DNA of 63,071 nt, filler included. It is 4 parts of 4 records of this genome, joined end to end, with 100 filler letters (N's around TTAATTAATTAA, not from the genome) between each part and the next. Parts side by side here need not be neighbours in the genome. Positions count along the whole stretch, not along the records: positions 24,334 to 46,435 come from SRR20825006_993; 3 more parts are not named here. The stretch is one strand, 5' to 3'. This document shows, piece after piece, positions 20,386-57,646 of the stretch. The position numbers and the translations under genes are program-made. Position 1 is the stretch's first letter; every line of letters begins with the position of its first letter. Under the pieces are notes generated by a model, which was not told the DNA's origin, made no database searches, and saw only the letters and a list, made by a program, of their open reading frames with translations.

Positions 20386-23300
20386 ATGAAAACACCTCTA
20401 CTCTATTCATGTAAAAAATTTTCAGCACTACTAAGTTTCGCATTCATATTTATGTTTCTAAATATGTTTCAAAACTTAAATGCACAAACACAAGTTTATG
20501 CAGACGCTGTTGTTTCACAAAATAATGTATTAAACTCTAATAACGCCATAGCCGAAAACGGCTCTTTTGCAACATTAAACTCAAGCGGTGGCCTACTAGC
20601 TGGTGGCGGTGCATATACAGGTGAAATTGAATTAGAATTTTCAAGCACCATTCCCGCTAATACAACAACCTTTGTAAGAATAGATTTTGATAATGACCTC
20701 CTAAATGTATTATTAGGTGGAGCGTTGGGAGATTTACTTGCAGACACTGTAGGGACTATTGCTTTAGGTGATCATTTCTTTAATGTTGAAGCACGAGACA
20801 ATGCCACCACAGTACTTAGTGCAAGCTCCGCTACAGGTGCGACAGATAGATTTAGAGTGGTTGTAGACCGAAATGGATATTTTTACATTGCCATTACTCC
20901 AGATGCAGATTACAACAGAGTTTATATTGAAGATGCAACAAGTACCTTATTATTAGGACAAGAAAATAGTATGAATGTGCACCACGCATTTTTCTATAAT
21001 GAACTTGGCAATAACGTAACACCTCTTTATTCAGATTTCGACGAAAGTGGTTTAGGATTAGATGTTGCCGATCTAGCAGATTCTGGTGTGGTAAACCCTC
21101 AATTTGCTATAGATAATAATAATAGCAGTTTTTCCGAAATCAGCTTAGGTACAGTGTCTTTAGGTGCTGGTATACAACAAAACATATATTTTGCAAGAGA
21201 ATATTCAAATACAGATGAGTTTTCAATAACACTTAAATCTGAACCTGCACTGGTAGCAGTTGGCATTCAAAACAATGTTGAAATAACAGCATTAAATGAT
21301 GGCGCAGAAGTGTTCTCCACGACGTTAGGAGATGTATTAAATATAGATTTACTTGGACTTTTTGAAAATGGTGAAATTGTAACAGTACCATTTGCTCCAA
21401 ATATTAATTTTGATGCTGTATCAATAAGCCTGTCTTCACTACAACCAGTTGGTGCTACTCAATCTATAAATATTTATGGTATATCAATCGCAGGTGAATT
21501 GTTGCCTGGCGAAGTTGATAATAGAGTTTTTGCAGACACAGTTAGTAATGAAAATAATGCAACTAATTCTGGAAGTGCCGTAGGAGACAATGGCAACTTC
21601 GCCGTACTTGAATCTTTTGGTGGTATAGCTGTAGGCATTGGAAGTTATACTGGTGACATTGAGTTGCAGTATCCAGAAGTTGTCCCAGCTAATACAACAT
21701 CATATATTAGAATAGATTTTGATGACGATGTATTAAACTCCTTACTTGGTGGTAGTTTGGGAGATCTGCTTGCAGATATAGTAGGAACTATTGCTCTAGG
21801 TGATCATTTCTTTAATGTTGAAGCCAGAAATAATACCACGACTGTACTTTCTGAAAGCTCTTCAGACTTATCAACAGATAGGTTTAGAGTCGTTGTAGAT
21901 GAGTTCGGCTTTTTCTACATTGCTATTACACCAGATTCAGATTATGATAGGGTTTATATAGAGGACGTTACAAATGCACTATTATTAGGTGAAACAAATA
22001 CAATGAATGTTCATCATGCATTCTATTATTCTTCTACTACACCTTGTGCTACAAATAACTTACTTACAGATTTTGATGATAGTGGCATTGGCTTAGACTT
22101 ATTAGAACTACAAAACTCTGGTGTTACTAATCCTCAGTTTGCTATAGATGAAAATGACAGTAATTTTTCTCAGTTAAGCTTAGGTGTGGTATCTGTAGGT
22201 GCAGGTATTCAACAAAACATATATTTTTCTAAAGACTATTCACCACAAAGTGAAATCTCAGTAAGGTTAAAAACAGACCCTTCTCTTTTAACTGTAGGCC
22301 TTTTAAACAATGTTGTTATTAGCGCATTAGATGATGGCACAGAAGTATTCTCTACAACTCTTTCAAGCGGTTTAGATGTAGACCTTTTAGGTCTTTTAAG
22401 TGATGGTGAAATTGTTGATGTTACATTTGCTCCAAACTTAACCTTTGATACAGTTACCGTAAGCCTTACTAGCTTAGAAGTAGTTACTGTAGCTCAAAGC
22501 CTAGATTTATATGGTGTATCTATTATAGATACTTCTATACCAGATGCAGATGCAGAGCAAACCTTCTGTTTGTTAGATGATCCTACCGTTGCAGATCTAG
22601 AAGTAAATTCTGGTCAAAACATAATTTGGTATGATGCTCCTGTTGGCGGAACAGCATACAGCACAACAGACCCATTAATAGATGGTGAAGTTTACTATGC
22701 TTCTCAAACAATTGATGGTTGTGAAAGTACTCTAAGAGCAGATGTTACTGTTACAGTAAACGATACTGCTACACCAACAACTACAGAATCTAATCAGGAA
22801 TTTTGTATTCAAGACAACCCTACTGTAGCAGATTTACAGGTTAATGAGACTGGTGTAACTTGGTATGATATGGCAACTGGAGGCACGGCATTTAATCCTA
22901 CAGATGCTTTAATAGATGGACAGTCTTATTTTGGAGCATTAACTGTTGATGGTTGTGACAGTACTACACGATTAGAAGTTATTGTAACAATAGCTAACAC
23001 GCCACCACCAACAACTACAGAACCTAATCAAGAATTCTGTATTCAGGACAACCCTACTATTGCAGATATTCAGGTTAATGAAACTGGTGTTATTTGGTAT
23101 GACATGGCAACTGGAGGAACAGCGTATGATTCAACAGATGCATTGACTAATGGACAAACGTATTACGCATCTCAAACTTTAAATAATTGCGAGAGTGCAT
23201 CAAGATTAGCAGTAGTTGTTACAATTTTTGAAACTCCTACTCCTACCACAGATAACACTGAACAAGAATTCTGTTCTCAAGACGTTCCTACTATAGCAGA

Positions 23301-24233
23301 CCTAATGGTTAACGAAGCAGACGTAACTTGGTACGATATGGCTACTGGTGGTACAGCTTATGATCCAACAGACGAGTTGGTTAATGGGCAATCTTATTTC
23401 GCCTCTATCTTAGCAGATAATTGCGAAAGTGCGACAAGGTTAGAAGTTGTGGCTACAATAAATACTACGCCACCACCAACTACAGATGATATTGCTCAAG
23501 AGTTCTGTATTCAAGATAACCCAACGGTATCAGACATAGATGTTAACGAGCCTGGAATCGTTTGGTATGATATGGAAACTGGAGGTACAGCATTGCCTGT
23601 TGATGAGCCTTTAGTTGATGGTGTAACTTACTATGCTTCACAAACTATAAATAATTGCGATAGCACATCTAGATTAGCTGTACAGGTTGAAGTTATCGAA
23701 ACTCCTACGCCAACTACAGATAGTACCGATCAAGAATTCTGTATTCAAGATAATGCCACGATTGCAGATTTACAGGTAAATGAATCTAATGTAACTTGGT
23801 TTGACATGGCAACTGGAGGAACAGCATACGATCCTACAGATGGTTTAGTAGATGGCCAATCTTATTACGCTTCAATAGTAGCAGATAATTGCGAAAGTGC
23901 TTCAAGGTTAGAAGTTTCAGTTTCAATCTTTGAAACTCAAACACCTACAACTAATGAAGCAATTCAAGAGTTTTGCAGTCAAGACAATCCAACGATTGCA
24001 GACCTACAAGTAAACGAGCCAAATATTACTTGGTATGATATGGCTACTGGCGGAACTGCCTATAATGCTACAGATGCATTGGTTGATGGACAAACATATT
24101 TTGCATCACAACTAAGTAATAATTGCGAAAGCGCAACACGTCTAGAAGTTACTGCAACTATTTACAGCACACCACCACCAACTACAACAGATAGTACACA
24201 GGATTTCTGTACTCAAGACAGTCCAACGGTTGG
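20386..24233 (+). CDS. Large secreted/surface repeat protein (adhesin-like, probable T9SS cargo); truncated at contig end
   Basis: Signal peptide, two ~344-aa N-terminal duplicated modules, then tandem 78-aa Ig-like repeats (WYD..TGG motif) of the kind found in Bacteroidota CHU/T9SS proteins; the C-terminus is missing, so no CTD is seen. Confidence 0.82.
20494..22527 (+). repeat. Two tandem ~1032-nt (344-aa) intragenic modules
   Basis: VYADAVVSQNN at 20494 vs VFADTVSNENN at 21526; shared IPANTT..RIDFD..LLGG.LGDLLAD.VGTIALGDHFFNVEAR, DRFRVVVD, NPQFAID, GAGIQQNIYF. Confidence 0.9.
22540..24233 (+). repeat. Tandem 234-nt (78-aa) Ig-like repeats, 7 complete plus 1 partial
   Basis: xFC motif at 22561, 22798, 23032, 23266, 23500, 23734, 23968, 24202 (first interval 237 nt, the rest 234 nt). 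Confidence 0.92.
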
Positions 24234-24333
24234 NNNNNNNNNNNNNNNNNNNNNNNNNNNNNNNNNNNNNNNNNNNNTTAATTAATTAANNNNNNNNNNN
24301 NNNNNNNNNNNNNNNNNNNNNNNNNNNNNNNNN
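24234..24333. other. Artificial contig spacer
   Basis: 44 N + TTAATTAATTAA (stops in all six frames) + 44 N. Confidence 0.98.
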
Positions 24334-24815: not shown

Positions 24816-25382
24816 TTATTCAACAATCACGTTGAATGTCTGTGTAACATCTGTTTCACCACCAGCATTAGTAATGTCGCCTTCTGCAACACCACTAGCA
24901 TCTTTGCTCGGTTCGTGACGCAATGTTACTGTAAAAGTTCCGTTTGAAGCTTCACCGGTTATTAAGCTAAAGTTAATTCCTACAGGATTTCCATCTGCAT
25001 CTGCATCTGCATAATCTGTAGTAACATTTAAGCTAGTAGATGCTTGATAAAAAAACTGGTGCTCATCTGCCTCTTCTGCAACCTCTTCGGTAATATCTTC
25101 TGCAGGAGATTCTGTTTCGTTAAGTAATGTAACTGTTCCCGTATAGGTAGTGTTAGCCAATAGGTTTACATCATCTATCACAGGAGCATTTGGTCCATCA
25201 CCATCTAAATCTGTAGCAGTAAATGTTACTGTTGGGTTACCTTCAGAAGTTAAAGAAATTGTAGTTGTAGTAATTAATTCTTCTTCATTCACTATTTCTG
25301 GAACACTATCATCATCACTTGAACAAGAGAAAATAAATAATGATGCAAGGGCTAAAGTTGATAATTGTTTTAAGGTGTTCAT
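24816..25382 (-). CDS. Acidic surface lipoprotein, partner of the TonB receptor
   Basis: Lipobox IFSC followed by SSDDD (acidic export-signal-like); EEELITT, EADEHQFFY and LRHEP motifs. Confidence 0.8.
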   Translation of the reverse strand: MNTLKQLSTLALASLFIFSCSSDDDSVPEIVNEEELITTTTISLTSEGNPTVTFTATDLDGDGPNAPVIDDVNLLANTTYTGTVTLLNETESPAEDITEEVAEEADEHQFFYQASTSLNVTTDYADADADGNPVGINFSLITGEASNGTFTVTLRHEPSKDASGVAEGDITNAGGETDVTQTFNVIVE

Positions 25383-25482: not shown

Positions 25483-27882
25483 TTAGTAATTTAATTTTAG
25501 TCTTAGAGTTACGTTTCTTCCTAAATCATCTGCATAATAACGTAGTCTATTTAAGTAGTCACGATACTCTGTATTAAAAATATTTGAGACATCAAGTCCA
25601 ACATTTAAAGTGCTTTTATTAAACACAGAAAAGTCTATACTGCTTGTAAAACCTAGTAAATGATAAGCATCTGGTGGTGTGCTTAAATCAACTACTTCAG
25701 TAGTTTCGGTCTCTGGAATAAAAACTTCAAAATTGTTATTTGGAAATTCATTTTGTCTAAAAACATATTGGCTTGTAATACCTAATCTTAGGTTATTTAA
25801 TTTTTCATTTTTAAACGTTAAACTATTTGTTGTGTTAACTGGCGGCATATTTATTAACGCACGATCTAAAGAGGTATCTTTTCCTTTAACGATACTAAGC
25901 TGGTGGTTTGTGCTAAAATTTTTAGTAAGCTGTAACCTGGCATCAACATCTACTCCTAATAATCTTGCTTGAGTTTGCCTGTATTCCCAAACCTGAAAAT
26001 TACCTCGTATGGTTTGCTCTATACCAGTTGGTTCAATTAAGATAAAATCTGAAATGAAGTTAGCAAATGGACTTACAGAAAATGAAATATGCTTAGTGTC
26101 GTGCTCTAACGTGACACTAAATTTATTAGCTCTTTCTGAATTAAAACTTAAGTCGCCAATTTCTATTCGAGATGCTGAATGGTGTAAACCTTCACTAAAT
26201 AATTCTGAAGGATTTGGAGATCTTGAAGCTAATGAATAGTTACCAAGAAGCTTATATGTATTATTTAATGCTAAACTAAAGCCAGCAGTTGCAGAAACAT
26301 TATGATAATCAAAATTCGGATTTGTAAGGATCTGATTTTCATTTCTATCTATTTCAAACTCTGGATAGGTTACATCATAACCGCGCTCTTCCCATCTAGA
26401 TAGCCTATAAAATTTAAAAGCATCTATATTTTGAAAGTCATAACGTAAGCCAGACTCTACAGTTAACGTAGGAGATAGGTTATACGTTAGTGCAGCATAA
26501 GCTCCTAAATCGTAACGTTCATAATCTGGTATTAACCGTCTAACTCCAGTTGATGGATCTGCAAAATTATCTTGATACCCAAATGAGAAACCTGTCTTAA
26601 TTTCATAATCTATTTTAGCATCATAAACCAAATCTGCATTAAAGTGATGTGTTGCTAACTCTAAATCTACACTTGGTCTATTATCTTCACTATCTCTTCT
26701 AACATCGAATTCTAAACGATTGTTTAATTGAAAATCATATTGCGCAGATATCTTTCCGAAATTTTCAAACCTTTTAAACAGCTTCAGTTTTGCTAAATGA
26801 TGATTCACATCTTGCCTTGGTTCTATTATATCATAAGTAAAATCATCTATAATGAACGGTCTGTCACTATTTATAGCACGTACTTGATCTTCTGCACCAC
26901 CAAGGTGAGAAGCCCTTAGTATTCCTACTTCATTATCAAAATAGGAGTAATATGCATCAAAACCCCAAGAAAACTTATTAAGACCAAATCCTAAAGAGAA
27001 ATCTTTTTCATCTTGACCTGTATTACTTAAAATATAATCTGGCGTTTCAAAATCTCCAAAGCGTTTATACGTTCCTTGAACTCTAGTATACCAACCAGAT
27101 TTAAATGTCTTAGTGAGGTTAGAAGTAAGTGTGCCGCCACGACCATTTGTAGATCCTGTAACTATAGTTTTTCCATAGATAGTATCTTTTAAAGGTGCTT
27201 TTTCTGGTTCTACAATTACAATGCCGCCAACTGCGCCACCACCATATTGTAATGCATTGGCTCCTTTTATTACAGCAACTTTACCAGCAGCATTTAAATC
27301 TACATTTGGTGCGTGTTCTGCTCCCCATTCTTGGTCTTCCATTTTAGTGCCATTATTATAAATAAGGACACGACTGCTATGTAAACCTTGTATAACAGGT
27401 TTAGCTACAGTATTTCCTGTATTTAAGGTAGATACGCCACTTATAGATTTTAATGCATCGCCTAAAGAACCGCTTGTTTTTGCATCTAAAATTTCAGAAT
27501 CTAAAACCTGTTCTTGTGCAGACAATACGTTTTTCTTGAATACAGCACCTTTAATGGTAACTTCACCAAGTTCTTCTAAATGATGTTCTAGCTTAATATC
27601 TAAAGTTGTATTACCAGAAACAGTTACTGGTACTGCTTTGGTATCACATTCAGGATGTGAAACTTGCAATGTGTAACTGCCATCACATAACCCTTTTATA
27701 GTATAGTTACCATCAAAGTCTGATAATACAGCCTTCTCTAAGCCAGCTACAATAAGTGTAGCGCCAACTAAAGGTGAGTTATCGTGAAAATCTACAATAG
27801 TTCCTTGCAATGTATACTCACATTCTTGCGCATTTACAAAAAGTGTACATATACAAGCACATACCCATAGGTATTTTTGCAT
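25483..27882 (-). CDS. TonB-dependent receptor, probably for a metal
   Basis: N-terminal carboxypeptidase-regulatory-like domain, plug with DQEWGAEHAP, VIKGANALQYG, GLHHSA loop, C-terminal GRNVTLRLKLNY. Confidence 0.9.
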   Translation of the reverse strand: MQKYLWVCACICTLFVNAQECEYTLQGTIVDFHDNSPLVGATLIVAGLEKAVLSDFDGNYTIKGLCDGSYTLQVSHPECDTKAVPVTVSGNTTLDIKLEHHLEELGEVTIKGAVFKKNVLSAQEQVLDSEILDAKTSGSLGDALKSISGVSTLNTGNTVAKPVIQGLHSSRVLIYNNGTKMEDQEWGAEHAPNVDLNAAGKVAVIKGANALQYGGGAVGGIVIVEPEKAPLKDTIYGKTIVTGSTNGRGGTLTSNLTKTFKSGWYTRVQGTYKRFGDFETPDYILSNTGQDEKDFSLGFGLNKFSWGFDAYYSYFDNEVGILRASHLGGAEDQVRAINSDRPFIIDDFTYDIIEPRQDVNHHLAKLKLFKRFENFGKISAQYDFQLNNRLEFDVRRDSEDNRPSVDLELATHHFNADLVYDAKIDYEIKTGFSFGYQDNFADPSTGVRRLIPDYERYDLGAYAALTYNLSPTLTVESGLRYDFQNIDAFKFYRLSRWEERGYDVTYPEFEIDRNENQILTNPNFDYHNVSATAGFSLALNNTYKLLGNYSLASRSPNPSELFSEGLHHSASRIEIGDLSFNSERANKFSVTLEHDTKHISFSVSPFANFISDFILIEPTGIEQTIRGNFQVWEYRQTQARLLGVDVDARLQLTKNFSTNHQLSIVKGKDTSLDRALINMPPVNTTNSLTFKNEKLNNLRLGITSQYVFRQNEFPNNNFEVFIPETETTEVVDLSTPPDAYHLLGFTSSIDFSVFNKSTLNVGLDVSNIFNTEYRDYLNRLRYYADDLGRNVTLRLKLNY

Positions 27883-27908
27883 GTCGTGAAAATTTTAAAA
27901 TTGAAAAC

Positions 27909-27937
27909 TATCCTGTTGCATATACAAGCAAAGGATA
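27909..27937 (-). promoter_or_regulatory. Attenuator/terminator-like hairpin between the leader ORF and the TonB receptor
   Basis: mRNA TATCCT-TTGC-(8 nt)-GCAA-C-AGGATA followed by GTTTTCAATTTT. Confidence 0.45.
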
Positions 27938-27950
27938 TTAAGAATGGAAA

Positions 27951-28271
27951 TTATGATAAAGAAGGTGGTCCTCTAAGTGAGACCGATATAGAAGATGTTA
28001 AGACCACACCTTCATTAATCTTGAAATTTTGGGTTTGTGGTAATAAAAACGACCAAATTTCATAATTAGGGACATTAAAAACAACAACAGGATTTAACTG
28101 AAATTTATAAAAACTACAGTCTAAATGTTTCTCGTGAAAATGAGTATCGCTAGGGTTGTCACAAAGCTTATGTTCATGTTGCTCTAATGCATGACCAAAT
28201 GAAACCCCTAAAGGAAATAGGAGTACAGCGGTAGCTAAAATTGCAATATGTTTAAAAAACTTTGTTTTCAA
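27951..28271 (-). CDS. His/Cys-rich leader protein with C-terminal RGPP (candidate ribosome-arrest peptide)
   Basis: Hydrophobic N-terminus, GHALEQHEHKLCDNPSDTHFHEKHLDC, ends SLRGPPSLS*; 68 nt upstream of the TonB receptor. Confidence 0.75.
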   Translation of the reverse strand: MKTKFFKHIAILATAVLLFPLGVSFGHALEQHEHKLCDNPSDTHFHEKHLDCSFYKFQLNPVVVFNVPNYEIWSFLLPQTQNFKINEGVVLTSSISVSLRGPPSLS

Positions 28272-28280
28272 TATCTTAAA

Positions 28281-28583
28281 TTAATCTAAAAACTTAGCAA
28301 AGCCCAATCGTTTAAGCATTTTCTTCTCGAAAGCCCAAAAGAATTGAAACTGGCCAAATATCCAGCCGAAAATAATCAAAAGCACTTGATAAACAGGGAA
28401 AATTAACAAAATCCTAACAGGCCAATAAATCCAACCGTTTGTGTTACCTTGAGTTATTCCTAAAAACTCTACTATTGGACCAGCAATTTTTGCAGATGTA
28501 GATCCTGTAATGCCAAACACTATAAAAATTACCACTACTTGCCAGTTAGAAGAAATTCCCCAACGTTCTTTAAGCTTTTTCAT
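28281..28583 (-). CDS. Conserved small membrane protein (DUF6787-like)
   Basis: MKKLKERWGI..WQ...IFIVFGITG...PVYQVLL..FGWIFGQF.FFW.FEKKML pattern. Confidence 0.75.
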   Translation of the reverse strand: MKKLKERWGISSNWQVVVIFIVFGITGSTSAKIAGPIVEFLGITQGNTNGWIYWPVRILLIFPVYQVLLIIFGWIFGQFQFFWAFEKKMLKRLGFAKFLD

Positions 28584-28600
28584 TCGGCAAAATTACAAAT

Positions 28601-29017
28601 TTACCTTAGTTTCTGATTGTAAGTTTCTTCAAAAAATTCAAAGTAATTAAATAAAAGGTAATTTACTTCATAACCATAGTCTATACCAGGTTGGTAATTT
28701 ATTTGTTGTTCATATAAATTAGTCCTATTGTAACGTGAGTCTAAAACACGTCTGTTATATTCCTGAACAGAAAAGAGGTTTCTATTTTCTAAAACCTTTT
28801 GTATGTAATAACCACGAGGTGGTTGTGTTGCAAGCCAATTTTGAAAACCTGGCTCGATAATTATAATTTCATATTCTAAACTATCATTAGCAATGCGTAC
28901 AGTATCTAGAGACTTAGTTTTAGATTCTTTATAGGTATGAGCTGCATCTGTAGTGTTAGTAGTTGCACAAGCTATTATTAACCATGCAAGAAGTAATGTT
29001 GGTATTATCTTTTTCAT
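28601..29017 (-). CDS. Lipoprotein (DUF6146-like)
   Basis: Lipobox IIAC; DTVRIANDSLEYEIIIIEPGF and DYGYEVNY.LFNYF motifs. Confidence 0.75.
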   Translation of the reverse strand: MKKIIPTLLLAWLIIACATTNTTDAAHTYKESKTKSLDTVRIANDSLEYEIIIIEPGFQNWLATQPPRGYYIQKVLENRNLFSVQEYNRRVLDSRYNRTNLYEQQINYQPGIDYGYEVNYLLFNYFEFFEETYNQKLR

Positions 29018-29057
29018 AACTAAAAAGATACAAAAACGATTCCAATTTTATATAAAC

Positions 29058-29089
29058 AAAAAATCAGTTGCCTTAAGACAACTGGTTTT
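29058..29089 (-). terminator. Intrinsic terminator after the DUF937 gene
   Basis: AAAATCAGTTG/CAACTGGTTTT imperfect stem with an A-run on the plus strand. Confidence 0.6.
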
Positions 29090-29107
29090 CTTTATATGGT
29101 AGTAAAA

Positions 29108-29740
29108 TTATTTTCCAAATAAGCCACCAAGCATACCGCCAAGGCCTCCTTTTTTCTTATTACCACCAAGGACCATTCCTGCAACATCATCAATAACACT
29201 ACCATCACCATCTGCGTCTAATAGCGTTTCAATTAACGATTGATCATTTGTACTTTGCGATCCTAAAACAGAACCTAATAAATCTCCAAGGCCGTTTTGA
29301 CTTACATTGTCTTTACGCTTTTGGCTTCCTAATATTCCCATAATTATCGGTGCAGCCATTTTTATGATTTGGCTTACACTACCAGCATCTACACCACTTG
29401 TTTTACTAATGGTTTGCTCTACACGTTCTTGCTTGCCACCTAGAACATGACCTAAAATACCACCGCCATCACTCATTAAATCATCTAGACCACCGCCACT
29501 TAATAAACCACCTAAGTTATCTAATAAAGAGCCATCGTGTTTATTATTTTCTAAAGCACTATTAAGACTTGCAGCACCTTCTGGAGTTGCAGCATTCCTT
29601 TTCATAGCTCCTAAAATAAGAGGCATAGCCGAGCTTAATACAGAAGCTGTACGCTCTGGGCTAGTATTGGTTTTTTCACTAGCACTACTAATAAGTTGTT
29701 TGCCAATGTCTGTATTTAATAAATCTAAAATCGAAGCCAT
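29108..29740 (-). CDS. DUF937-like Gly-rich protein
   Basis: HDGSLLD, GILGHVLG, LDADGDGSVIDD, GLGGMLGGLFG. Confidence 0.82.
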   Translation of the reverse strand: MASILDLLNTDIGKQLISSASEKTNTSPERTASVLSSAMPLILGAMKRNAATPEGAASLNSALENNKHDGSLLDNLGGLLSGGGLDDLMSDGGGILGHVLGGKQERVEQTISKTSGVDAGSVSQIIKMAAPIIMGILGSQKRKDNVSQNGLGDLLGSVLGSQSTNDQSLIETLLDADGDGSVIDDVAGMVLGGNKKKGGLGGMLGGLFGK

Positions 29741-46435: not shown

Positions 46436-46535
46436 NNNNNNNNNNNNNNNNNNNNNNNNNNNNNNNNNNNNNNNNNNNNTTAATTAATTAANNNNNNNNN
46501 NNNNNNNNNNNNNNNNNNNNNNNNNNNNNNNNNNN
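46436..46535. other. Artificial contig spacer
   Basis: 44 N + TTAATTAATTAA + 44 N; abrupt change in GC content and gene content across it. Confidence 0.98.
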
Positions 46536-57546: not shown

Positions 57547-57646
57547 NNNNNNNNNNNNNNNNNNNNNNNNNNNNNNNNNNNNNNNNNNNNTTAATTAATT
57601 AANNNNNNNNNNNNNNNNNNNNNNNNNNNNNNNNNNNNNNNNNNNN
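57547..57646. other. Artificial contig spacer
   Basis: 44 N + TTAATTAATTAA + 44 N. Confidence 0.98.

Follow-up and report, generated by a model that had tools for sequence, protein, structure and literature searches.

We consider it fairly probable, on the basis of sequence comparisons, that a short gene located directly in front of a TonB-dependent receptor gene encodes a cis-acting, metal-responsive translation-arrest peptide, a divergent member of the CutF/CruR (DUF2946-like) group that would tune expression of the receptor that follows it. The leader family to which this gene belongs looks like a flavobacterial branch of a metal-responsive leader class that has already been described. The gene was analyzed within a stretch of DNA of 63,071 nt, the whole of which is referred to here as the window. 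An earlier note on this DNA had reported an open reading frame (ORF) of 106 amino acids with six His and two Cys residues and an RGPP motif three codons before the stop, lying 68 nt upstream of a TonB receptor, and each of these particulars was confirmed. The features considered are the following:

27951-28271, minus strand: leader ORF, 106 amino acids, with a TTG start and a TAA stop at 27951-27953
28185..28268, minus strand: N-terminal hydrophobic helix of the leader, residues 2-29, from the AlphaFold2 model and an invariant Pro20
28107..28193, minus strand: candidate His/Cys sensor cluster, residues 27-55, from conservation among homologues
27975..28115, minus strand: linker, or 'ruler', residues 53-99, of fixed length and weakly conserved sequence
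27963-27974, minus strand: RGPP motif, R100-G101-P102-P103, matching a reported arrest motif
27951..27962, minus strand: tail S-L-S and stop codon, with three residues after PP
27883..27950, minus strand: spacer of 68 nt between the leader stop and the receptor ATG, with a hairpin at 27909-27937 and a C>G skew
25483-27882, minus strand: TonB-dependent receptor, 799 amino acids, the presumed regulated gene, from Pfam domains
24816..25382, minus strand: lipoprotein, 188 amino acids, located after the receptor, with an acidic stretch behind the lipobox Cys
28281-28583, minus strand: DUF6787 gene, from Pfam
28601-29017, minus strand: DUF6146 gene, from Pfam

The leader ORF contains no internal Met, and its N-terminal end is positively charged and Lys-rich. 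The earlier note had suspected a signal- or TM-like N-terminus, and this is borne out by the AlphaFold2 model, in which residues 2-29 form a confident helix (mean pLDDT of 91 for residues 1-10, 97 for residues 11-20 and 84 for residues 21-30) that fits a predicted signal anchor or signal peptide. The candidate sensor residues are H27, H32, H34, C37, H44, H46, D51, C52 and position 55, which is Tyr here, with all 6 His and 2 Cys residues falling between residues 26 and 52. No folded sensor domain was modelled in the leader, the pLDDT of the cluster being 50-55, and beyond residue 55 the model shows no secondary structure, with moderate confidence (pLDDT 76-83) for residues 61-90.

The leader belongs to a large and uncurated family, for which 296 clusters of homologues were found at E ≤ 0.001. 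For the leader and 81 homologues, no Pfam or NCBIfam model reached its threshold and only noise was returned; an NCBIfam family of small Bacteroidota motif proteins was considered as a candidate and dropped, as the NCBIfam scans gave no match. A six-row alignment used as the query retrieved related loci, and the single leader protein used in this way found no relative.

Conservation of RGPP, on which the earlier note had let its proposal stand or fall, is high. Of 153 homologues, 144 have an RGPP (118) or RAPP (26) motif no more than 12 residues from the C-terminus, and the same ending is found in 20/20 loci of relatives and in 30/30 loci sampled across the phylum. The tail that follows PP is 2-5 residues long in 138 of 146 homologues and exactly three residues long in 79 of these 146. 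Within the window (63 kb), the open frames with 100 or more codons (22,908 residues) contain R[AG]PP once, namely in the leader ORF, and as no other long frame of the window contains the motif while the homologues retain it, its presence in the leader is more than chance. Moreover, all six Arg, all four Gly and all four Pro codons occur in the motif across 97 loci, and selection thus acts on RGPP/RAPP at the peptide level, since every synonymous codon is in use.

The second conserved element is the cluster. The earlier note had also called for a check of the His and Cys positions, and these proved invariant or nearly so: P20, H27, C37, H44, H46 and C52 are invariant across the leader family, and H32 and H34 are at least 90% conserved. 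The earlier proposal that the His cluster replaces CxxC did not hold, as the first Cys is retained and the His cluster occurs together with CxxC in relatives. Likewise, the CSFY that was said to stand in place of CxxC is indeed present as C52-S-F-Y55, yet C52 is invariant, and 21 of 151 family members have Cys at position 55, which makes a true CxxC. The third element is the distance between cluster and motif. From C52 to the motif Arg, 47 residues are found in 126 of 141 homologues and 46-48 residues in 140 of 141, and the commonest residue in the linker columns mostly has a frequency below 0.4. In Flavobacterium paralogues with a CxVC sequence, 44-46 residues separate the second Cys from the motif.

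The gene that follows the leader encodes a receptor with CarboxypepD_reg (CarbopepD_reg_2), Plug and TonB_dep_Rec_b-barrel domains, as assigned by Pfam, while every match of the 799-residue protein to NCBIfam was sub-threshold. Among solved structures, the receptor comes closest to ZnuD (7.5e-15), OprC (1.9e-13) and haem receptors, the cargo being Zn for ZnuD and Cu for OprC. The association of leader and receptor extends well past the window. A large ORF on the same strand begins within 400 nt after the leader in 72 of the 78 named loci that have a leader, a receptor homologue comes next in 15/15 loci and in 24/30 loci, even where the upstream genes differ, and a TonB-dependent receptor follows the leader in nearly all loci examined. 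The lipoprotein encoded after the receptor co-occurs with the receptor type of about 800 residues in 8 named loci and in locus L019, and its invariant residues include E107-H108 and H156-E157-P158. It is likely to be a surface partner of this receptor type. AlphaFold2 modelled the lipoprotein as a beta-sandwich (pLDDT 66), for which Foldseek returned no PDB structure at E ≤ 0.001, only generic beta-sandwiches, and a sequence search against the PDB returned nothing. An Atlas search yielded automatic names only, and the lipoprotein searches gave no clue to the cargo.

Upstream of the leader, synteny is lineage-specific. The DUF6146-DUF6787 pair adjoins the leader only in marine Flavobacteriaceae and was not detected upstream in loci L028-L050, 23 loci that are more distant. 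The leader of the window starts 9 nt past the DUF6787 stop, and in marine relatives this distance is also a few bases, such that the leader may not head an operon, unlike cruR. Contigs from marine RNA libraries (metatranscriptomes) cover the whole gene row, and both a single transcript and DNA carry-over are possible explanations of this. In a different arrangement, some Flavobacterium paralogues of the leader are followed by an ABC ATPase and a receptor-like ORF, with a gene order reminiscent of the Zur-regulated znuK-znuGHI cluster of Caulobacter.

The spacer between the leader and the receptor has a median length of 59.5 nt in 72 named loci (range 21-129 nt), is 33-77 nt long in 19 relatives, counting from the leader stop to the receptor start, and has a C content of 0.14 and a G content of 0.07. 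The C/G ratio is 1.9 in spacers, 1.4 in leader ORFs and 0.92 in the first 600 nt of the receptor. In the window, an A/U-rich stretch precedes the receptor ATG, and the spacer hairpin, with a z-score of -1.57, is not significant by itself. A hairpin with a stem of at least 6 bp is found in 44 of 72 spacers, as compared to 32% of shuffles, a figure to be read with the relatedness of these loci in mind. Several spacers of 21-41 nt show no structure. No output element is shared by all loci, and the spacers have no prominent element of the Shine-Dalgarno type. An intrinsic terminator was rejected as a general mechanism, given that a U-run is absent after most hairpins and that the window fold is not significant. 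A conserved CTGAA/TTCAG inverted repeat was considered as a DNA operator, but in other loci the two halves still pair although their bases differ, and an RNA hairpin is thus the more likely of the two.

How the leader relates to DUF2946 (PF11162, with a cut-off of 23.7 bits) has to be considered at the level of weak similarities. The window leader has no PF11162 match at E ≤ 1, PF11162 is not among the 25 matched families (of 47) that were listed for 81 family members, and 23 relatives, of the Flavobacterium type and others, score 16 bits at best against PF11162, which is below the cut-off. A genome scan found PF11162 above the cut-off in 0 of 21 relatives and in 4 of 401 in the phylum. Several Flavobacterium relatives are labelled 'DUF2946 domain-containing' by UniRef, yet score below the PF11162 cut-off here. 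The sub-threshold matches are nonetheless in register all the way between the Cys motif and the RAPP end. When the family was compared by hhalign to 11 Bacteroidota proteins, a match with 94.6% probability (E 6.5e-8, 56 columns) was obtained, part of which reflects shared short motifs; as the 11 proteins had been chosen by their marginal PF11162 scores (~19-24 bits, two at the cut-off), this link is indirect. With regard to the sequence marks of the group, the window leader has C52-S-F-Y55 rather than CxxC or CxxxC, whereas the spacing of about 45 residues from Cys to the Pro motif is present, with 47 residues after C52 or, equivalently, 44 after position 55. The fixed spacing, the CxxC-bearing relatives and the profile-profile match together tie the family to the DUF2946-like proteins CruR and CutF, and the leader family is thus probably a distant homologue of DUF2946/CutF-like proteins and not a mere analogue. 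The earlier description of a 'Bacteroidota analogue' of CruR was therefore right about the likeness and probably too cautious about kinship.

CruR (Bp2923) of Bordetella pertussis is a DUF2946 upstream ORF (uORF) in front of the TonB-dependent transporter BfrG, in which 45 residues separate CxxC from a RAPP motif located three residues from the C-terminus (PMC9426467). CruR requires both RAPP and CxxC, remains functional with the spacing altered by 1-2 residues but not by +5, and acts via Rho (PMC9426467). The analogy drawn in the earlier note can accordingly be put in numbers, with 47 residues from the Cys motif to Arg here and 45 after CxxC in CruR. From what is described in that paper, the two systems share a fixed distance from sensor to motif, a TonB-dependent receptor as the next gene and a C>G-skewed 3' region. 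They differ in that the window leader has CxxY and five conserved His residues, as well as RGPP instead of RAPP, and in that the spacer is 68 nt long here (family median about 60 nt), as compared to 162 nt for cruR. Furthermore, the window leader is found in an AT-rich Bacteroidota host directly behind another gene, while cruR heads its operon, and is undetected by PF11162, unlike CruR. Taxon terms do not occur in the supplements of PMC9426467.

CutF of Rhodobacter capsulatus has a Sec-type N-terminus and, at its C-terminus, a Pro-rich stalling motif that is preceded by a metal motif at a distance of about 45 residues (PMC9973294 / 10.1101/2022.11.11.516240; 10.1101/2025.02.05.636593). It controls the next gene, a copper-detoxifying oxidase, in cis; Cu lengthens stalling and melts a stem-loop that covers the Shine-Dalgarno site, and the 45-residue spacing has been proposed to put the motif in the periplasmic vestibule of SecY (PMC9973294; 10.1101/2025.02.05.636593). 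A survey of CutF-like proteins described Cys, His or mixed motif clusters and TonB-like neighbours, with Bacteroidota accounting for 19% of 5,334 proteins (PMC9973294 / 10.1101/2022.11.11.516240; 10.1101/2025.02.05.636593). As far as these accounts go, the window leader resembles CutF-like proteins in its export N-terminus, in the spacing of about 45 residues to a Pro motif and in the presumed cis control of the next gene, but its presumed target is an uptake receptor, many spacers have no stem-loop and none has a Shine-Dalgarno element that stands out. CzcI, a type of small periplasmic protein encoded upstream of czcCBA, shows weak NCBIfam similarity (E 0.011-0.015, far below the threshold) to 2 of 81 family members and to 1 of 8 Flavobacterium-type members. 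It has been counted among CutF-like proteins although it has no C-terminal Pro motif (PMC9973294; 10.1101/2025.02.05.636593), and it differs from the leader family both in this respect and in preceding an efflux pump.

RAPP and RGPP are robust arrest motifs that are enriched in small exported proteins encoded upstream of TonB receptors (5450 RAPP versus 722 AAPP cases), TonB-dependent receptors being the largest enriched downstream class, in Gram-negative bacteria generally (PMC12992588, EMBO J 2025). Like such leaders, the protein studied here has a conserved motif near the stop, an N-terminal signal and a same-strand gene downstream. With ApdA, ApdP and ApcA it shares a C-terminal RGPP/RAPP, small size, a localisation signal and a position upstream of a regulated gene; those peptides, as reported, monitor protein export and precede sec/yidC, while the window leader precedes a TonB-dependent receptor. 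The novelty that the earlier note assumed is thus smaller, as RAPP/RGPP uORFs in front of TonB receptors and CutF-like proteins in Bacteroidota have already been published. The catalogue in PMC12992588 does not describe a His/Cys family, a 47-residue linker or a flavobacterial context ('flavobacter' occurs 0 times and 'bacteroid' twice in the main text).

Taken as an arrest peptide, the leader may work in the following way. The N-terminal hydrophobic helix would direct the nascent chain to the membrane, and the ribosome would stall when R-G-P occupies its P site and the codon for the second Pro its A site. The 47-residue linker would then keep the His5/Cys2 cluster at a distance of about 50 residues from the peptidyl-transferase centre, placing it just past the exit tunnel or in the vestibule of the translocon. 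Whether metal occupies the cluster would alter the force, from pulling or folding, that acts on the chain and thereby the duration of the stall, from which receptor expression would follow. In the version that we favour, which is modelled on CruR, arrest would be the default and the receptor would be on, with the stalled ribosome shielding the C-rich, G-poor 3' end and the spacer from Rho or mRNA decay; metal sufficiency would release the ribosome and turn the uptake receptor off. Since CruR and CutF respond to Cu in opposite ways (PMC9426467; PMC9973294), the direction of regulation given here is a guess. Cu and Zn are the leading candidates for the sensed metal, with Ni and Co being possible. 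It is also conceivable, if tentative, that the family is mainly a histidine sensor (five His, two Cys) for a metal other than copper, with an output route that has not been described. Zn would then be the likeliest metal, ZnuD being the nearest solved relative of the receptor. Such an output might involve either exposure of a conserved A/U-rich box found 10-15 nt before the receptor start codon or protection of the C-rich, G-poor spacer of only ~60 nt.

Much of the same evidence has to be weighed against readings in which no metal-dependent arrest takes place. A mature, membrane-anchored periplasmic metal-binding protein, working alongside the receptor as its chaperone or relay and using RGPP in a structural or interaction role, is unlikely. 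Such a protein would account for the conserved His/Cys cluster, the confident N-terminal anchor, the tight association with a metal-type receptor and the moderate confidence of residues 61-90. A folded partner, however, would hardly be expected to have a linker whose length is fixed while its sequence drifts, and the model has no secondary structure past residue 55. The motif lies 2-5 residues from the stop in nearly all homologues, proteomes strongly avoid RAPP/RGPP outside arrest peptides (PMC12992588), and the CruR and CutF proteins are reported to be hardly detectable (PMC9426467; PMC9973294), all of which speak against a mature protein. Arrest could, in turn, serve as an export monitor of the SecM/VemP/ApdA kind, which would report Sec/YidC capacity and couple receptor synthesis to secretion, given that an N-terminal export signal is combined with a C-terminal RGPP as in Sec-linked RAPP peptides (PMC12992588). 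We find this quite improbable, as the downstream gene is a TonB-dependent receptor, and not sec/yidC, in the window and in the relatives examined, and as the two invariant Cys residues and the five His residues, invariant or nearly so, would be left without a role.

The two invariant Cys residues, 14 residues apart, could instead form a periplasmic C37-C52 disulfide that, rather than a metal, supplies the force releasing arrest, and RAPP/RGPP uORFs do precede DsbA and thioredoxin genes (PMC12992588). The conservation of five His residues and a receptor of the metal type downstream are better accounted for by metal binding, and the CxxC relatives resemble the copper-sensing CruR, such that we give very little credence to a redox sensor. 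A small His/Cys-rich peptide gene beside a TonB-dependent receptor would also be expected of a precursor of a ribosomally made metallophore that is taken up by the adjoining receptor, but the conserved neighbourhood contains no genes for modifying enzymes, the protein has an N-terminal membrane helix and 106 residues with a fixed linker, and the C-terminal arrest motif would go unexplained; this origin is barely credible. A metal-responsive arrest peptide is thus the reading that we retain.

Outer-membrane metal uptake and its regulation are poorly understood in marine Flavobacteriaceae, and the leader family singles out a group of TonB-dependent receptors that probably import metals. As the family is missing from Pfam and NCBIfam, a new model would better annotate hundreds of 'hypothetical proteins'. 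The leader offers a compact and mutable switch, in which motif, ruler and sensor are contained within 106 codons, and the 47-residue ruler, held in common with the proteobacterial CruR/CutF at negligible identity, supports a geometric rule for nascent-chain sensors. Bacteroidota initiate translation largely without Shine-Dalgarno pairing, such that the output mechanism may be a different one, and control of the next gene by a stalled ribosome here could reveal an output unlike those of SecM, CutF and CruR.

The earlier note had described an ORF with a cluster of 6 His and 2 Cys, an RGPP motif near its end and a 68-nt gap to a TonB-dependent receptor gene, and ORF calls and a domain scan found each of these elements to be correct. 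The genes concerned are listed below.

Features of the leader locus in the window
27951–28271, minus strand: leader ORF, 106 codons, TTG start, no internal Met
27963–27974, minus strand: RGPP, near the leader C-terminus
25483–27882, minus strand: receptor ORF, 799 aa, beginning at 27882, 68 bases past the leader; CarboxypepD_reg, Plug and TonB beta-barrel domains
24816–25382, minus strand: lipoprotein, 188 aa, after the receptor
directly upstream of the leader, with a 9-nt gap: genes for DUF6787 and DUF6146 proteins (family assignments)

From N- to C-terminus, the leader presents a Lys-rich end, a hydrophobic stretch, the His/Cys cluster, 47 residues without obvious character, and then L-R-G-P-P, S-L-S and the TAA stop. 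Elsewhere in the window, a 1299-aa secreted repeat protein (20386–24285, plus strand) continues into paired N runs of 44 bases; N runs lie at 24234–24333, 46436–46535 and 57547–57646, with two further such pairs besides the one at the repeat protein.

A HMMER search of 1.84 billion representative proteins yielded 296 clusters at E<=0.001, and the 153 family proteins retained from it were used for counting C-terminal motifs. Conservation of RGPP among homologues, which the earlier note had set as a test, was borne out: 144 of the 153 end in RGPP (118) or RAPP (26), at most 12 residues from the C-terminus, while 2 carry RRPP or RSPP and the remaining 7 are truncated, extended or carry KGPP. In an 81-member alignment, no variation is seen at P20, H27, C37, H44, H46, C52, R100, P102 or P103, and conservation is 90% or higher at H32 and H34. 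It should be noted that the RxPP columns of this alignment are invariant partly through row selection, the unfiltered count being that of the 153 proteins. Pro20 (codon 28212–28214), within the N-terminal hydrophobic helix, is invariant family-wide (99–100%); such a residue in a helix is odd for a simple signal anchor, and the arrest model gives no explanation for it. Every synonymous codon for Arg (six), Gly (four) and Pro (four) is found at the motif across 97 loci, so the constraint lies on the encoded residues rather than on any RNA or DNA element. Within the long open frames of the window (22,908 residues), the leader ORF holds the sole R[AG]PP. By these comparisons, the leader is a real conserved gene, with selection on its motif acting at the level of the peptide.

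The linker between C52 and the Arg of the motif is weakly conserved, the commonest residue mostly falling below 0.4 per column. Its length is 47 residues in 126 and 46–48 in 140 of the 141 proteins that fit the full motif pattern (the 12 of 153 that do not fit were excluded), and the tail after PP spans 2–5 residues in 138/146. Flavobacterium paralogues with a CxVC motif have 44–46 residues past the second Cys, in the same register. For Bordetella CruR, 45 residues from CxxC to RAPP are reported (PMC9426467), and the spacing given for CutF is 45 too, where the authors propose that the motif then sits in the periplasmic vestibule of SecY; the rulers of these systems and of the leader family (47 after C52) match. 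A fixed length with a drifting sequence is what co-translational geometry between a sensor and an arrest site predicts, and is hard to explain as part of an ordinary folded protein.

Neither the leader nor its 81 relatives gave a Pfam or NCBIfam match at threshold. The PF11162 (DUF2946) model gave no match in the genomes of 21 relatives and exceeded its cut-off in only 4 of 401 Bacteroidota genomes; by formal Pfam membership, the leader family lies outside PF11162. Position 55 is Cys in 21/151 members, creating CxxC, and the Flavobacterium paralogues carry the His cluster and CxVC together. Sub-threshold PF11162 matches (13–16 bits) were obtained for 5 of 23 scanned relatives, with alignments that start at the Cys motif and reach the final profile position, or that cover the N-terminal two-thirds of the profile, and several of these relatives carry the UniRef label DUF2946. 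When the family profile was aligned by hhalign to 11 Bacteroidota proteins chosen by their marginal PF11162 scores, a probability of 94.6% was obtained (E 6.5e-8, 56 columns), although the connection is an indirect one and depends in part on short motifs that both sides have in common. We therefore grade homology to DUF2946/CutF-like proteins as probable, given the ruler, the CxxC relatives, the sub-threshold PF11162 matches and the hhalign result.

Used as a single-protein query against 37 same-family genomes, the leader had matches in 26 at E<0.001 and in 32 at E<=10, and 20/20 loci from relatives' genomes contained an ORF with R[GA]PP at its end. Among 15 strict-pattern loci, the order DUF6146-DUF6787-leader-receptor was found in 14 and leader-lipoprotein-receptor in one. 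Our set of 80 named marine Flavobacteriaceae loci (L051–L130, including Gelidibacter, Mariniflexile, Winogradskyella, Bizionia and Algibacter) contains the leader ORF in 78 cases, 72 of which are followed within 400 nt by a same-strand ORF of 500 codons or more. The receptor in these loci comes in two types, of ~735–757 and ~798–819 aa, the latter followed by a lipoprotein of the 188-aa type, as in the window. The three-gene row abutting the leader upstream (28281–29740, minus strand) encodes a Gly-rich protein of 210 aa, the lipoprotein-like DUF6146 protein and the small membrane protein DUF6787, and is present in nearly all of the 80 loci.

Across the phylum, the family profile matched 25/301 genomes: 19/23 in the window's family, a few in other families, and 0/63 and 0/49 in two large families. 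A receptor homologue lies downstream of the leader in 24 of 30 phylum-wide loci; of the other six, examined by eye, three have an ABC ATPase followed by an apparent receptor N-terminus and two have lipoproteins next. In the more distant loci (L028–L050), no DUF6146/DUF6787 pair was detected ahead of the leader. As the receptor persists while this pair goes, the lasting association is that of leader and receptor, and the upstream synteny is, on this gene-order comparison, lineage-specific. Flavobacterium genomes (L032–L039, L046–L048) hold one to four paralogues of the CxVC subtype each, some with an ABC ATPase next and then a receptor-like ORF, a gene order recalling the Zur-regulated znuK-znuGHI cluster of Caulobacter (PMC4176598). 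At locus L043, a divergent, very His-rich leader ending SLRGPP adjoins divergently oriented genes, which by eye resemble those for an NRAMP-type metal transporter and for a regulator of the Fur family.

NCBIfam matches of the receptor (haem, ZnuD, haemoglobin/transferrin and copper receptor models) all fell far below cut-off. Among solved structures, ZnuD (Zn; 7.5e-15), OprC (Cu; 1.9e-13) and haem receptors come closest to it, which places it, by similarity, among metal and haem importers with no single cargo singled out. The lipoprotein has invariant E-H and H-E-P motifs, and its lipobox Cys is followed directly by an acidic stretch. The predicted model, a generic beta-sandwich, has no informative structural match; the protein could serve as a partner that is exposed at the surface and binds cargo. 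It also carries a D-x-D-G-x-G stretch and accompanies only the ~800-aa receptor type. Its public name, 'type 1 periplasmic binding fold superfamily', gets no support from the beta-sandwich model.

In 14 marine metatranscriptome runs, 55–63% of sampled words of the 4.3-kb stretch were found, and in two of four runs examined, single contigs of 6.1 and 6.4 kb span the lipoprotein gene into the DUF6146 gene, with ~2.5% differences and indels only at intergenic positions 27893, 28275 and 28280. This shows that a close relative of the locus is present in RNA libraries; it is not proof of a single transcript, and DNA carry-over may contribute.

The concept of such RAPP/RGPP leaders is already published. 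CruR was described in mBio in 2022 (PMC9426467), and an mBio 2023 paper on CutF (PMC9973294) surveys 5,334 CutF-like proteins, 19% from Bacteroidota, with clusters of Cys, His or mixed motifs and with TonB-like genes as second commonest neighbours. The proteome-wide catalogue in EMBO J 2025 (PMC12992588) describes RGPP and RAPP as robust arrest motifs, unrelieved by EF-P, which proteomes avoid and which are enriched C-terminally in small exported proteins; genes downstream of these include TonB-dependent receptors, the largest class found downstream of RAPP uORFs (5450 cases). Among the papers found, survey supplementary lists aside, none describes the flavobacterial leader family, its 5-His/2-Cys pattern or the 47-residue ruler. 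Anatomy, conservation and linkage to the receptor are shown by the comparisons presented here, and the family is well supported in silico.

In CruR, as its report states, RAPP is required to keep bfrG on, and copper sensed via CxxC relieves arrest, upon which Rho terminates (PMC9426467). In CutF, copper is described as making the stall last longer, and a stem-loop that covers the ribosome-binding site of the following gene melts. We favour the CruR logic because the target is an importer, the motif belongs to the strong RGPP/RAPP type, and the leader 3' part and the spacers are C-rich and G-poor. The C/G ratio is 1.4 in leader ORFs, 1.9 in spacers and 0.92 in the receptor's first 600 nt; cruR holds a C>G region too, according to its authors (PMC9426467), similar to the leader 3' part and the spacers. 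Against this logic count the shortness of the spacers (median 59.5 nt, range 21–129 nt), the lack of any structure universal among 72 spacers, and the window's hairpin (27909–27937), with a fold z-score of only -1.57. A hairpin with a stem of at least 6 bp within 45 nt past the stop occurs in 44/72 spacers vs 32% of mononucleotide shuffles, the loci being related and not independent. Hairpin arms in many spacers of the named loci are often CTGAA/TTCAG, and elsewhere pairing is kept with different bases.

No Shine-Dalgarno-type element stands out in the listed spacers. An A/U-rich box, T[TA]AA[TC]T[AT]A (TTAAATTAA-like), is present in 52 of the 72, mostly 10–15 nt before the receptor ATG, compared with 17% of shuffles and with the region upstream of 3 of 44 other long window ORFs. 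Since Bacteroidota initiate translation largely without Shine-Dalgarno pairing, the box might lie in the receptor's initiation region; as speculation, it might be an initiation element exposed or protected by the stalled ribosome. In several loci, base-pairing is possible between TAATAAT at the leader's stop codon and an ATTATTA immediately ahead of the box.

The sign of regulation is a guess by analogy, as the two studied relatives, CruR and CutF, differ in it. In the mechanism that we propose, the ribosome would stall at P102/P103, placing the His/Cys cluster ~50 residues back from the stall site; metal bound there would alter the force on the chain and with it the duration of the stall, which would set receptor synthesis. 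With the favoured CruR logic, arrest would be the default and keep the receptor on, and metal would release the ribosome and may thereby turn the receptor off.
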